Assembly (NCBI GenBank): GCA_016186795.1 | Contig: JACPKY010000002.1 | Location: 1,053,892-1,117,891, forward strand | Reading direction: 5' to 3' | Origin: Candidatus Gottesmanbacteria bacterium | GTDB taxonomy: Bacteria; Patescibacteriota; Microgenomatia; 2-02-FULL-39-11 | DNA length: 64,000 bases | Part shown: positions 25,415-31,329 of the stretch, in pieces | Layout: each line of letters opens with the position of its first letter | Position numbering within the stretch: position 1 is the stretch's first letter | The notes under the pieces: generated by a model | The model's database searches: none | What the model was told of the DNA's origin: nothing | What the model saw: the letters and a program-made list of their open reading frames with translations, nothing else | Position numbers and translations under genes: made by a program

Positions 25415-27653
25415 CCTAACAACCAGAATTAGGAATTGAGAATTAAGAATGAAGAAAAATCTTCTTGATTCATACTTCTTTATTCTTAATTCGAGATGAG
25501 AGCTCTTTAAAAAGTGAACAGGAAAATAATGACGATCCACGCCGCCGTCCTGGCGGAGTGGAGAGGTCCACAACGTAAGAAATCGCATTACGATTTCAAC
25601 GTTGTAGGAACGTGCAAATTGCTATGCAATTTGTTACGTTCCATCTTTACGTCTTAAAGTCTACTCATAAAGTCGACAATGGATGCCTTGGTGGTTTTGG
25701 CCGAGGAAGGACGCATGCATACTTGCGATATCGTCGGGAAGGCAGTCAGCAGCCTTTGATCCGGTGGTTTCCGAATGGGGCAACCCCCCCGACTAAGTCG
25801 GGGAGCCATACAGACAAATCCCGAGCAATCGGGAACATAGCCGTATGGTAGGTAAGCAGGTGAACTGAAACATCTAACTAACCTGAAGAAAAGACATCAA
25901 TAGAGATTCCGTCAGTAGCGGCGAGCGAAAGCGGAACAGCCTAAACCCTGTCGAAAGACAGGGGGTTGTAGGGCTTCCGATATGGGATGAGATGCAGGTA
26001 GCGGAATTGCTTGGAATAGCAAACCATAGAGCGTGAAAGTCGTGTACGCGAAACCTAAATCTCCTCTAGGGAGTACCTAAGTACTACGGGGCACGGCAAA
26101 ACCCCGTAGGAAGCTGGGACGTCCACGTTCCAAGGCTAAATACCAAAACCAACCGATAGTGAACGAGTACCGTGAGGGAAAGGTGAAAAGCACCCCGGTG
26201 AGGGGAATGAAATAGTACCTGAAATTGTCGACTAACAAACAGTGAGAGTCCCGATTTAATCGGGATGATCACGTGCCTATTGAAGAATGAACCGATGAGT
26301 TGTCGTAACGTTCCAAGTCTAACCAACTTTGTTGGGGAGGCGCAGTGAAAGCGAGCCCTAATTGGGCTATTTAGGAGCGGACGACAGACCCGAAACCGGG
26401 TGAGCTAACCATGGACAGGGTGAGTCCCGAGGAAACTCGGGAGGAGGCCCGAACCCTTCAGAGCTGCAAATCTGTGGGACGATCTGTGGTTAGGGGTAAT
26501 ATGCCTATCGAACCCGGAGATAGCTGGTTCTCCTCGAAATATATTTAGGTATAGCGTCCGTTTATACGATCCTGGGGGTAGAGCACTGAATGGGTTACCA
26601 AGCGTAAGCGAGGCAGCTCAATCAAACTCCGAATACCAGTGACGTTATACGGGCAGTCAGTCCGGCTCGGCTAAGCGAGTCAGGTCGAGTGGGGGAAAAA
26701 CCCAAACTCCCAATTAAGGTCCCTAAATCTTGACTAAGTTGAAAAGGAAGTGAGATTTCTAAAACACCCAGGAGGTTGGCTTAGAAGCAGCCACCCTTTA
26801 AAGAAAGCGTAACAGCTCACTGGACGAGAGGTCTTGCGCCGAAAATGAACGGGGATCAAGTCAAGTGCCGAAATTGGAGGTCTTATCGCAAGATAAGGCA
26901 GTAGAGGAGCGTTCCTATCGCAGTGAAGGTGTGCCGTAAGGCTAGCTGGAGTGATAGGAAGTGCGAATGTCGGTATGAGTAGCGTAATTTCGGTGAAAAT
27001 CCGAAGCGCCGTAAGCCCAAGGTTTCCGTCCCAACGTTGATCGGGGACGGGTAAGTCGGATCTAAGGCAAGTCCCGATTTAATCGGGAGTAGCTCGATGT
27101 AGAAGCCGTTGATATTCGGCTACAATGGAGAAAGGTTTCATAAGGGGAAGACGAAATTGGAGAGACAGATCCCGATTTAATCGGGACTAAGCCATAAGAT
27201 AGTAGTAACTGGAAAATCCGTTATTGCGTTTAATCAAGTGGTGATGGAGAGTCCAAAGAGCAATCTGCGGGCAATTCTGTACCTTTTCAGGTTCCAAGAA
27301 AACTCTCACTATGTTCTGGGGCGCAAGTCTCAGAAAACTTTCTTTATTTCCGTACCGCAAACCGACACAGGTGGGCTGGTAGAGTATACCAAGGCGATCG
27401 GGAGAAAATGGCTCAAGGAACTCGGCAAAACAGCTGGGCGTAACCTATGGGAGATGCCCTGCCTCACGAAAGTGGGGCCACAGCAAAAGACACTTACCAA
27501 CTGTTTAACTAAAACACAGGTCTCTGCAAAGCCGAAAGGCAACGTATAGGGGCTGACGCCTGCCCAGTGCACGTAGGTTAAGAATCATGGGTGACCCCGA
27601 TTTAATCGGGAAAGCTTGAGATTCAAGCCCGTGTGAACGGCAGCAGTAACTAT

Positions 27654-28243
27654 GAAACCGGAAATCCGGAGTTGTAGTTGTAAAATGTGACTATATGCTG
27701 GGACATCCCGTGTATCTGAACATACGAGAAAATATCAAAAATTAAATATCAAATATCAAAAATACATAGTAAAAATCAAATTTTTCGCGTAAAAAATGTT
27801 CAGTGGGGATAATCAGCAGGTAACCGCGCCAAAAATTTCATATTTAGGCGGGGGAATCCTCAGAGACCATAAGTCACATCCTAAATGATTTAGGAATGAT
27901 ATGGTCCGGACTCATGGGCGACCATGAGACTCTGTAAGCAATCAGAGTCCGCCAGTTGGCGGATAACAATTCGAACTGTTCTATGGTGAAACCTGAAAGA
28001 AGGTTCGCTGCCATAGTGAGGTGTAAACCCTCCGTTATGTGCGTATGCCGATACGCGCTAAAACGAAAACTTGACTATATGCTGGAAACACTCGTGTATC
28101 CAACGGTACCGCAATGAGGTAAAAATCTGTTTGGTGGAGTCAATCAGCAGGAAAGATCCCGATTAAATCGGGAAATCCTCAGAGACTATACGTCAGGATT
28201 CGCCTCAAGAGGCGAAATAAGATATAGTCCAAACTTCGAACAT
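27654..28243 (+). mobile_element. ORF-less group I intron insertion at the 23S position equivalent to E. coli U1917 (H69 loop), apparently with two tandem intron cores
   Basis: Insertion splits GTAACTAT | ...AGCGAAATTCC. P/Q/R/S-like elements occur twice: ATGCTGGGACA, AATCAGCAGG, CCTCAGAGACCATA, GATATGGTCC at 27690-27900, then ATGCTGGAAACA, AATCAGCAGG, CCTCAGAGACTATA, AAGATATAGTCC at 28070-28220. IGS GTAGTT can pair with the exon end AACTAT. The 3' end has a P9 hairpin before the exon. Confidence 0.6.
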
Positions 28244-28762
28244 ATCGAAGATTTAGAGCGAAATTCCTTGTCGGGTAAGTTCCGACCCGCACGAAAGGCA
28301 GAATGAGTAAGTGACTGTCTTGAGCCGTTGCCCGGCGAAATTGAAATGGCTGTGAAGATGCGGCCTACTTGCACCAGGACAAAAAGACCCCGTGGAGCTT
28401 TACTGCAACTTGGCATTGAGAAGGCGTTTGAAACTGTCGAGTATAGGAGGGAGTCCCGCAAGGGACACAAGTGGAATACCTCTCTTTTCAAACGTTGACC
28501 CTTATCTCTTGGCCGCACAAATATCCGGCAGGGAGACAGTGTCTGGTGGGCAGTTTCGCTGGGGAGGTGGCCTCCAAAATCGTAACGGAGGCGTACATAA
28601 GGTTGGCTTAACACCAATGGAAACGGTGTTGTACGTGCAAACGCATAAGCCAGCTTCACTGCGAGACCTACAAGTCGAGCAGATGCGAAAGCAGGTGTTA
28701 GTGATCCTCGGATCCGCAGTGGTTGCGGACCGAGCTTAACGGATAAAAGCTACCCCGGGGAT

Positions 28763-29628
28763 ACATTCTGTGTCCCGTCCCGATAGTATATACTAATATC
28801 GGGACTTGGAACGGCTAATAACGGTGGAATCCAAAACTGTGGTAAGTTACGGTCTTTACTTACACGAGGCACAGTTTGGACAATACCGTGGGAAGTTAGG
28901 AAAATGAATAAACATAAACAATCGATTCTGACTGGAATGATTTTAGGAGATGCTTATTTACAGAAGACTGGAAAAAACAACGCGCGTATCCGACTTGAGC
29001 ATAGCGAAAAATCTAGAGATTATCTTCTCTGGAAAGGAGCTTGCTTTCCTGAATATTTTCAGGGAAAACCAAAAAGATACGTACGATTTAATCCGATCTT
29101 TAAAAAAACGTATATCTATCTGAGATGGCAATCATCTGCATCTCCTGAGATAGGCAAATTGCAGCGATTATTTTATATCGATCATAAAAAAATCATTCCC
29201 AAGGATCTCGATGAACTTTTGGTTGATCCAATTTCACTGGCTGTATGGTATCAAGATGATGGTTATTACTATAAACGAGACAAAATGGCTTATATTTATT
29301 TGCCCAGAATTTCTTCAGATGAGTTAAATGTATTGATGCATACACTACAGAAAAATTTTGGAATAAATCCAAGAGTAAAAGTGAAGAAAAGAGGAAATAG
29401 AGTCTTGGTATTTCCGGTTGAAGAGACAAAGAAATTATTTTCTCTCATTGAACCATATATTATACCTTCCATGAGGTATAAAATTTCCTAACCCCGTATC
29501 GACTGAGCATTAAGTTGCGAGGTCCCGATAAAGTATCGGGACAAGATGCCGTCTCCCTCACATACAAGTATGTGAGGGATGAAGATATAGTCAACGCCCC
29601 GATGTAAATCGGGGAAATATTATACGTG
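28763..29628 (+). mobile_element. Group I intron at the 23S position equivalent to E. coli U2449, carrying a LAGLIDADG homing endonuclease ORF
   Basis: Splits GGGGAT | AACAGGCTGAT. Ends with the omega G in ...TATACGTG. S element GAAGATATAGTC is near the 3' end. Several CCCGAT...ATCGGG hairpins are present. Confidence 0.7.
28904..29491 (+). CDS. LAGLIDADG-family homing endonuclease (intron-encoded)
   Basis: 195 aa inside the intron, same strand as the rRNA. LAGLIDADG-like motifs LTGMILGDAYL and AVWYQDDGYYY. Paralogous (about 35-40% identity by eye) to the ORF in the next intron. Confidence 0.7.
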   Translation: MNKHKQSILTGMILGDAYLQKTGKNNARIRLEHSEKSRDYLLWKGACFPEYFQGKPKRYVRFNPIFKKTYIYLRWQSSASPEIGKLQRLFYIDHKKIIPKDLDELLVDPISLAVWYQDDGYYYKRDKMAYIYLPRISSDELNVLMHTLQKNFGINPRVKVKKRGNRVLVFPVEETKKLFSLIEPYIIPSMRYKIS

Positions 29629-30536: not shown

Positions 30537-30629
30537 CATCCTATCCTGGGGCTGAAGAAGGTCCCAATGGTCCGGCTGTTCGCCGGTTAAAAGGGTACGC
30601 GAGCTGGGTTCAGAACGTCGTAAGACAGT

Positions 30630-30975
30630 AGACCTTAGTAGTTCGACACTACTATAATGAGCTGTCTTTCCTTCACCGTTTTGAACAATAAGAGAATTGA
30701 AGGAATCCTATAATATAAGTATTATAGGGATAAATTTGGCTAAATGCTGGAAACTCCGAGTATCTTGTGCTACCTTAATTTAATAAGAAAGGTAAAAATG
30801 CAACAAGTGCGGACAATTAGCAGGAAAGATCCCGATTAAATCGGGAAATCCTCAGAGACTATATGCCAGATGATGTACCGTATGGTGCGTCAAAGATATA
30901 GTCCGAACTGCATGGCGACATGCAGACCGTAGCAGAAATGTTTACGGCCACAAAGAAATTGTGAGTAACAAATTG
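30630..30975 (+). mobile_element. ORF-less group I intron at the 23S position equivalent to E. coli 2593
   Basis: Splits GTAAGACAGT | TCGGTCTCTATCC. P (AAATGCTGGAAAC), Q (AATTAGCAGG), R (CCTCAGAGACTATA) and S (AAGATATAGTCC) elements are all present. IGS CTGTCT pairs with the exon AGACAG. Confidence 0.65.
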
Positions 30976-31329
30976 TCGGTCTCTATCCGGTGCAAGCGTT
31001 GGATACTTGAGGGGAGCTCTTGCTAGTACGAGAGGACTGCGAGGGAGGAATCCCTGGTGAGCCAGTTGTTTCCCATTGGGAGCAAAGCTGGGTAGCTACA
31101 TTCCTACGGGATAAGCGCTGAAAGCATCTGAAGCGCCAAGCCCACCCCAAGATAAGGTATCCCTTTAGACCCCTTGTAGAATACAAGGTTGATAGGCGGA
31201 AAGTGTACACACGGCAACGTGCTTAGCTTATCCGTACTAATTGGTCGAGAGTAAATTTTAAGTCGCATAAGATGGAATAATCCTGTTCACTTTTTAGAGA
31301 GCATTTATACTCTAGGCACTTTTTGTACT

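Follow-up and report, generated by a model that had tools for sequence, protein, structure and literature searches.

A tRNA-Ala-23S-5S unit of Candidatus Gottesmanbacteria with a 23S rRNA gene very probably split by five group I introns

We analysed a 64,000-nucleotide (nt) stretch of DNA (hereafter the window; positions 1,053,892 to 1,117,891 of the forward strand of contig JACPKY010000002.1, assembly GCA_016186795.1) from Candidatus Gottesmanbacteria, a member of the candidate phyla radiation (CPR, Patescibacteria). Four flanking proteins match NCBI entries from this organism exactly. The window carries a tRNA-Ala-23S-5S unit, and we conclude with high confidence that the 23S rRNA gene of this unit, the single one of the genome, is split by five group I introns, here called I1 to I5, at L1917, L1931, L2449, L2511 and L2604. 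Four kinds of observation carry this conclusion, namely the positions of the introns, their core structure with covariation, their presence or absence at exact junctions in relatives, and the family of the homing endonucleases (HE1 and HE2) encoded by two of them. The unit is laid out as follows, with LSU standing for large subunit, ORF for open reading frame and Intron_gpI for the Rfam group I intron model:

25225..25299, + strand: tRNA-Ala (UGC), first gene of the unit (ARAGORN; Rfam tRNA match 25225-25297, 70.2 bits)
25654..27653, + strand: 23S exon 1, E. coli ~1-1917 (Rfam LSU start; blastn and MAFFT to E. coli 23S)
27654..27973, + strand: intron I1 at L1917, 320 nt, no ORF, 39% GC (Intron_gpI match 27644-27928, 36.3 bits, E = 6.7e-7)
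27974..27987, + strand: 14-nt micro-exon AACTGTTCTATGGT, E. coli A1918-U1931, the 3' strand of helix 69 (alignment to E. coli)
27988..28256, + strand: intron I2 at L1931, 269 nt, no ORF (Intron_gpI match 28035-28250, 58.7 bits)
28257..28762, + strand: 23S exon 3, E. coli 1932-2449 (blastn, MAFFT)
28763..29628, + strand: intron I3 at L2449, 866 nt, with HE1 inside (Intron_gpI match 29440-29614, 31.1 bits, E = 2.5e-5)
28904..29491, + strand: HE1, a 195-aa LAGLIDADG_2 ORF in the P6 loop of I3 (Pfam PF03161)
29629..29690, + strand: 23S exon 4, E. coli 2450-2511, 62 nt, peptidyl-transferase centre (Rfam LSU local match 29634-29675; blastn, MAFFT)
29691..30536, + strand: intron I4 at L2511, 846 nt, with HE2 inside (Intron_gpI match 30403-30528, 27.5 bits, E = 3e-4)
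29790..30395, + strand: HE2, a 201-aa LAGLIDADG_2 ORF in I4 (Pfam PF03161)
30537..30629, + strand: 23S exon 5, E. coli 2512-2604, 93 nt (Rfam LSU local match 30537-30601, 64.4 bits; blastn, MAFFT)
30630..30975, + strand: intron I5 at L2604, 346 nt, no ORF (Intron_gpI match 30673-30925, 79.4 bits)
30976..~31255, + strand: 23S exon 6, E. coli 2605 to the 3' end (blastn, MAFFT and reading of the sequence; end within a few nt)
31337..31453, + strand: 5S rRNA (Rfam RF00001, 58.7 bits)

Insertion sites were placed by blastn and MAFFT against the E. coli 23S, using U1917, A2451 and A2602 as anchors; the E. coli copy used is 2,899 nt long and is offset by -4 from canonical numbering at 1900-2600, which was corrected via these anchors. 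The bacterial LSU rRNA gene begins at 25654 on the + strand (Rfam RF02541, 1776 bits). The global Rfam alignment, which covers 25654-28861 (model positions 1-2925), was not accepted as the extent of the gene: it stops at 28861 because the introns break the alignment, the 3' third of the model being forced onto intron sequence, and local LSU matches go on at 29634-29675, at 30537-30601 and from 30997. The true extent is 25654-31255, with a 3' end that is approximate within a few nt. Joined together, the exons form a contiguous rRNA of 2,955 nt, as the earlier note on this DNA had anticipated, colinear end to end with the E. coli 23S and free of any gap or indel longer than 33 nt. The exons have a GC content of 50.6%, against 37-44% for the introns, which total 2,647 nt.

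A single-nucleotide ambiguity affects the I4 site, where a shared C could be assigned to the intron or to C2512. We assigned this intron to L2511 because the group I U/G rule settles the ambiguity, and all 14 family members read GGCU/...UG/C (slashes mark the splice sites here and below). The predicted ligated junctions are GTAACTAT/AACTGTTCTATGGT/AGCGAAATT for L1917 and L1931 together, CCGGGGAT/AACAGGCT for L2449, GTCGGCT/CATCCTAT for L2511 and AGACAGT/TCGGTCTC for L2604. It is these five exact splice junctions that define the mature 2,955-nt 23S, and their practical value lies in annotation. The earlier note had counted four group I introns, at L1917, L2449, about L2500 and L2593. Group I introns are indeed there, and the sites L1917 and L2449 stand; the number rises to five, since the note had merged L1917 and L1931, and alignment to E. 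coli moves the remaining two sites to L2511 and L2604. The core strings it quoted for L1917 (ATGCTGGAAAC, AATCAGCAGG, CCTCAGAGACTATA and AAGATATAGTCC) lie at 28078-28230, inside the L1931 intron.

Searched at a permissive threshold, the LSU gene gave five separate Rfam Intron_gpI matches, one per intron. The check with Rfam models that the note had proposed came out mixed, with I2 and I5 above the gathering score of this model (RF00028, 50 bits) and I1, I3 and I4 below it. Same-site homologues of two of the weaker introns do pass, i.e. the L1917 intron of another Gottesmanbacteria genome (locus L065; 56.7 bits), which is 78% identical to I1 over 162 nt, and an ORF-less L2511 intron (locus L046; 54.1 bits). 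No L2449 homologue above the gathering score was found among the loci scanned; the identification of I3 as a group I intron is based on covariation in the L2449 family. The low scores of the ORF-bearing introns come largely from the ORF interrupting the model.

In each of the five introns, a U precedes the 5' splice site and the last intron nucleotide is a G. A guide sequence at most ~50 nt from the intron 5' end pairs with the preceding exon to form P1, which places a U·G pair at this splice site. From I1 to I5, P1 is 8, 7, 5, 4 and 8 bp long, and P10 is 4, 6, 1, 3 and 3 bp long. The P1 strands are GUAACUAU with GUAGUUGU in I1, CUAUGGU with GCCAUAG in I2, GGGAU with GUCCC in I3, GGCU with GGCC in I4, and AAGACAGU with GCUGUCUU in I5, and the P10 strands of the first two introns are AACU with AGUU (I1) and AGCGAA with UUCGCU (I2). 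The alignment with the Rfam consensus extends through P3-P9 in I1, I2 and I5, and the J8/7-P7 motif GAUAUAGUC is conserved in all five insertions.

Covariation in the two ORF-bearing families provided evidence for a group I core that does not depend on the Rfam score. For the L2511 family (14 introns, ORFs trimmed), RNAalifold yielded P1, P2, P3, P4, P5, P8 and P9; once P7 and P9.0 were added, the paired share of cells was 92.3%, compared with 35-44% in the slid controls. Compensatory change was seen in 30 of 50 pairs, and none of 500 shuffles reached the observed values. P1, P2, P3, P4, P5, P8, P9 and P9.0 are each 85-100% paired, and U8·G28 is invariant in all 14 introns. The 13 trimmed introns of the L2449 family likewise yielded P1, P2, P3, P4, P5 and P8, with compensatory change in 21 of 38 pairs, such that core helices between P3 and P9 show compensatory change. 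A single P7 register set by hand for the whole L2511 family was abandoned, two registers each suiting a subset of the sequences.

To place the introns in relatives, we scanned one genome per species with HE1 and HE2. This yielded 552 relatives, and 80 loci were retained (handles such as L002 denote these and other matching loci). Among the loci mapped, the L2449 site is occupied in 24 and empty in 13, and the L2511 site has an intron in 13 and none in 23. There are also ORF-less versions, 253-365 nt long, such as those at L2511 in L046 (253 nt) and L058 (264 nt) and at L2449 in L045 (362 nt). Intronless alleles carry the exact joined exons: the sequence predicted for L1917 and L1931 joined, GCAGCAGTAACTATAACTGTTCTATGGTAGCGAAATTCC, is uninterrupted in at least 120 metagenome contigs, and among the 120 metagenome matches listed, the exact ligated junction was found for L2449 in 1, for L2511 in 5 and for L2604 in 2 (including L100). 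Individual relatives illustrate this optional presence. L113, with exons 90% identical over positions 1694-2955 (the span of its contig), has the L2604 intron only; L100, with exons 85% identical, has no intron; and L002 has introns at L1931, L2449 and L2604, its L1917 and L2511 sites being empty.

Several points weigh against a gene interrupted by five group I introns. Three of the five (I1, I3 and I4) fall below the Rfam gathering score on their own, the P1 of I4 has just 4 bp, P10 is weak in both I3 and I4, and these two introns may need protein help for splicing. P7 of the L2511 family is paired in only 73.8% of cells in the tested register because its 3' strand, AUAGUC, is invariant, and I4 itself fits another register. 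Splicing in vivo is something we infer from the sequences rather than a demonstrated event, and the L1931 group I intron of Simkania negevensis is reportedly unspliced, judging by the title of Everett et al. 1999. Some of the introns, especially I3 and I4 and possibly I1, could be genuine group I introns yet not autonomous ribozymes, needing their encoded LAGLIDADG protein as a maturase, or host factors, to splice; we consider this rather unlikely. The short pairings (P1 of 4 bp and P10 of 3 bp in I4; 5 bp and 1 bp in I3), the incompletely paired P7 and the sub-threshold scores all lean that way, and LAGLIDADG proteins can act as maturases (PMC11270868). Set against this, ORF-less family members stand in otherwise intact 23S genes, at L2511 in L046 and L058 and at L2449 in L045, and therefore a cis-encoded maturase is not strictly required.

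Fragmenting intervening sequences (IVSs) are common in bacterial 23S genes. Relatives of the window have a 120-160-nt insertion of this kind in helix 25, and IVSs are suspected in CPR at two other sites, 23IS2 and 23IS4 (PMC11270868). It is nevertheless very improbable that the insertions are IVSs of the enterobacterial type, cut by RNase III without ligation to leave a fragmented 23S: all five combine a U·G pair in P1, a terminal G, the motif GAUAUAGUC and covarying P3-P9, their sites lie within helix 69 and within strands of the peptidyl-transferase ring and domain V core rather than at helix tips, and the 14-nt and 62-nt fragments would have to sit in the ribosome without covalent links. 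The features expected of an RNase III-type IVS, i.e. a stem-loop at a helix tip, a place in helix 25 or 45 and no ribozyme core, were not found. The Simkania precedent would favour one or more introns being retained unspliced in the mature rRNA, to which we give a similarly small chance. From what is known of ribosome structure, 270-870 nt in helix 69, by A2451, in the 2500-2512 strand or by A2602 would ill fit a working single-copy 23S, and relatives with 85-90% identical exons lack these insertions. Finally, intron-bearing fragments of several organisms might have been stitched into one gene, chimeric assembly of rRNA genes being a notorious problem of metagenome bins. We regard this as the least probable of the alternatives, since the flanking proteins of the window lie on a 1,118,283-bp contig, the exons flanking every intron form one coherent 23S, the same multi-intron layouts recur in the independently assembled L002 and L065, and a lineage-specific hairpin is present in both exons and introns.

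If the five insertions are spliced as group I introns, each would fold into its core within the precursor, and P1 would pair the last exon nucleotides with the internal guide sequence, setting the U·G pair at the 5' splice site. Exogenous guanosine would attack this site, the terminal G of the intron would then take the same binding site, and the exons would be ligated, the product being a contiguous 2,955-nt 23S in which helix 69 and the peptidyl-transferase centre are both intact. HE1 (in I3, at L2449) and HE2 (in I4, at L2511) are predicted to be monomeric, two-motif enzymes of the I-SceI type, looped out of P6. They would cut intronless alleles at the cognate site, the intron then being copied in by double-strand-break repair (homing). 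The intronless sites presumed for them are CCCCGGGGAT/AACAGGCTGATC for HE1 and GATGTCGGCT/CATCCTATCC for HE2. A CPR LAGLIDADG enzyme, I-ShaI, is known to cleave the intronless allele at its own insertion site (PMC11270868).

Both endonuclease ORFs are intact, and their products pass the PF03161 cut-off of 25 bits by a wide margin (HE1, E = 1.6e-35 and 123 bits, residues 7-178 on positions 2-168 of the 168-position profile; HE2, E = 5.4e-45 and 153.8 bits), and their lengths agree with the LAGLIDADG proteins of about 200 aa that the note had read in two introns. In phmmer comparisons with PDB sequences, HE1 matched 6x1j at 1.5e-19 and I-SceI (1r7m) at 2.2e-16, and HE2 matched them at 7.2e-21 and 1e-18, with the LGDA and DDG motifs aligned in each case. 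There are two LAGLIDADG motifs per chain, each with a catalytic acidic residue at its end (ILTGMILGDAYL and LAVWYQDDG in HE1, ILVGTLLGDAHL and LAIWYMDDG in HE2), and these align to the motifs of 6x1j. The closest known parallel to I3 is the yeast mitochondrial 21S omega intron with I-SceI, which occupies the same site (after U2449) and whose enzyme belongs to the same LAGLIDADG_2 family. The target core of I-SceI, GGGAT/AACAGG, is common to the omega intron site and the I3 site. The two systems differ in their hosts, bacterial here, and in enzyme length (235 aa for I-SceI, 195 aa for HE1), and the HE1 match is recognisable at the family level only.

HE1 and HE2 share 30% identity (E = 3e-34), and the note's description of them as clearly paralogous applies only in the family sense. 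Each is closer to enzymes of other genomes that occupy the same site: for HE1, identity is 41-82% with L2449-site enzymes against 28-38% with L2511-site ones, and for HE2 it is 35-75% with L2511-site enzymes against 28-36% with L2449-site ones. The best relative of HE1 is the L2449 enzyme of L002 (82%), and those of HE2 are the L2511 enzymes of L053 (75%) and L065 (69%). This grouping by site points to ancient site-specific lineages and, on the basis of these comparisons, HE1 and HE2 do not appear to stem from a recent duplication. An exact look-up of HE1 and HE2 in a collection of 15 billion proteins returned no match, while flanking proteins of the same contig were present. Presumably both are missing because ORFs inside annotated rRNA genes go uncalled, and such enzymes would therefore be under-represented in protein databases.

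The start of the HE2 gene overlaps the ribozyme core of I4. Its ATG lies within the 3' strand of P5, and the frame crosses the P4' strand and the start of P6 (29790-29830; AUGGGUAAUACCGUAGGAAGUCGAGGAG), so that the first ~12 codons double as catalytic-core RNA. This overlap is kept in L053 and L065; other family members start after GAGGAG, which looks like a ribosome-binding site.

The introns lacking an ORF in the window also have endonuclease-bearing homologues. The L1931 intron of L002 has a LAGLIDADG_1 ORF where I2 has just a hairpin, and the L2604 introns of L113 and others bear a LAGLIDADG_1 ORF, and we read the three ORF-less introns, I1 included, as endonuclease-free forms of intron families that carry LAGLIDADG_1 genes in relatives. 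A search of I1, I2 and I5 for remnants of LAGLIDADG_1 genes found none of significance. I2 and I5 share a 63-nt block with 90% identity. We considered whether they are recent intragenomic copies of each other and set the idea aside as unproven, since I2 resembles the L2604 intron of L002 about as closely (77.6% over 125 nt) and all relatives conserve the core that flanks the block.

Introns with an L2449 or L2511 endonuclease are also found in bacteria outside the CPR, cultured strains included. The carriers are Pyrinomonas methylaliphatogenes K22 (L016), Hydrogenobacter sp. RSW1 (L022), Thermocrinis (L019 and L030), Armatimonadota (L047 and L075), an Actinomycetota (L060) and Thermoflexus (L061). 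The cultured ones could be tractable systems for splicing and homing tests. L2449 and L2511 may be among the sites that the CPR survey counts as "not reported in any known bacteria" (PMC11270868). Among the matches listed, the closest relative of the window in the genome collection is L002 (CAZJBV010000004.1), with HE1 82% and 23S exons ~80% identical and hairpins common to both. L002, one of several contigs from "binchicken" metagenome-assembled genomes in the set, is labelled "uncultured Gammaproteobacteria" and looks like a mislabelled CPR bin.

Group I intron-type insertions in CPR 23S rRNA genes were reportedly described by Brown et al. in 2015. A later survey of 348 CPR 23S genes (Tsurumaki et al. 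2024, PMC11270868) found that 82% of them have insertions, as many as 16 in one gene. Inserted sequence averaged 1,327 bp in total and reached 5,750 bp at most, and Rfam classed 45% of the insertions as group I. The same source groups the hot spots 23IS6-14 in the 3' portion of the gene, around the peptidyl-transferase centre, and names 1917, 1931, 1952, 2593, 2604 and 2657; the genes contain 62 LAGLIDADG_2 ORFs, typically of ~210 aa (PMC11270868). The window resembles these genes in its clade, in the hot spots 1917, 1931 and 2604, in its mix of ORF-less and LAGLIDADG-bearing introns and in having multiple insertions. The available part of the survey does not describe by name the combination L1917, L1931, L2449, L2511 and L2604, nor does it confirm that 23IS9-11 correspond to L2449 and L2511 (PMC11270868). 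Our literature search under the intron names L2511, L2512 and L2604 found nothing relevant.

In an endonuclease-selected sample of 29 near-complete genes, insertions of 200 nt or more beyond position 1900 numbered 3 in the median gene and 5 in the richest, these counts being lower bounds, and the median total insert was 2,434 nt. The intron count of the window is at the upper end of this sample, and its total intron length is near the median. Both are unremarkable within the range of the CPR survey, in light of which the note's view that the intron density is notable finds no support (PMC11270868).

The 23S of Coxiella burnetii offers a second parallel, with an intron at L1917, another a few nt downstream and a tiny exon between them, as here. 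By the title of Raghavan et al. 2007, its two group I introns reportedly flank a 34-bp exon, and the second is said to lie at L1951. In the window the second intron is at L1931, the internal exon has 14 nt, and three further introns follow in domain V.

The 23S gene is also separated from any 16S gene. No small subunit (SSU) rRNA match was returned by Rfam on either strand of the whole window, i.e. over 25.6 kb upstream and 32.5 kb downstream of the 23S, which bears out and extends the note's observation of a tRNA-Ala-23S-5S operon with no 16S in the preceding 25 kb. A spacing above 1.5 kb is reportedly the threshold that Brewer et al. set for unlinked 16S and 23S genes, and the arrangement in the window qualifies as unlinked. 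Patescibacteria are among the clades whose rRNA genes are exclusively or mostly unlinked (Brewer et al., 10.1101/705046); the window conforms to this pattern and adds a tRNA-Ala retained beside the 23S. L002 and L065 have the same tRNA-23S-5S layout, with no 16S in ~4 kb upstream. A multi-intron 23S with LAGLIDADG enzymes and an unlinked 16S is a documented hallmark of the CPR, as the note had recognised (10.1101/705046 and PMC11270868), and the window is an ordinary further case. As a discovery it matters little, being a fresh instance of a well-described CPR feature.

Two minor features surround the tRNA gene. The tRNA-Ala is framed by a 12-bp leader/trailer stem (25211-25222 and 25358-25369; ATTGTCTGCGAG and CTCGCAGACAAT), and 25376-25401 is a 26-nt copy, 92% identical, of the tRNA-Ala region from anticodon stem to T arm (25260-25285). 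Neither ARAGORN nor Rfam called a second tRNA at 25376-25401; the copy could be what is left of a second spacer tRNA, or a trace of integration in the past.

We further observed that short palindromic hairpins recur across the rRNA gene and beyond it. Counting both orientations, the 15-nt palindromic hairpin CCCGATTTAATCGGG (reverse complement CCCGATTAAATCGGG) has 8 copies in the window against 0.13 expected, 7 of them in the rRNA gene, and a second palindrome, TCCGCCAGYTGGCGGA, has 5 copies against 0.02 expected. These are distributed as follows:

26250-26264, 27073-27087, 27171-27185 and 27596-27610: copies of CCCGATTTAATCGGG in exons, in this orientation
25788-25802: degenerate copy of CCCGATTTAATCGGG in an exon
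28158-28172 (I2), 30831-30845 (I5) and 54276-54290 (intergenic): copies of CCCGATTAAATCGGG
27948-27963 (I1) and 30472-30487 (I4, tip of P8): copies of TCCGCCAGYTGGCGGA inside the rRNA gene
5973-5988, 36332-36347 and 55472-55487: copies of TCCGCCAGYTGGCGGA outside the rRNA gene

The exon copies of CCCGATTTAATCGGG cap four unrelated 23S helix tips, near E. coli 545, 1360, 1455 and 1868, with the degenerate fifth near 130. At the four intact tips, the nearest relatives carry other, unrelated hairpins or, in the case of helix 25, an insertion of 120-160 nt; the fifth tip could be aligned to none of the relatives. In I2 and I5, the tip of P6 consists of CCCGATTAAATCGGG, at the very position of the LAGLIDADG_1 gene in relatives. 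Several copies of CCCGATTTAATCGGG are also present in the 23S of the closest relatives L002, L118 and L200, and TCCGCCAGYTGGCGGA caps the ~1360 tip in L065 and, in L002, replaces a different hairpin of the L2449 intron. We tentatively suggest, as a possibility that is still more doubtful than probable, that short palindromic hairpin cassettes are copied among unrelated places in this lineage, namely the tips of peripheral 23S helices, intron peripheral loops and intergenic DNA. If either a factor that binds all these RNAs or a process acting on the DNA (a mobile mini-palindrome, or gene conversion that closes a helix once an insert is gone) lies behind this, it would represent an undescribed way to remodel rRNA and intron peripheries. 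A 21-nt AT-rich string, ATTAAATATCAAATATCAAAA, is likewise shared between the P5 loop insert of I1 (27741-27761) and intergenic DNA (54232-54252), where it lies ~20 nt from the sole copy of the first hairpin outside the rRNA gene.

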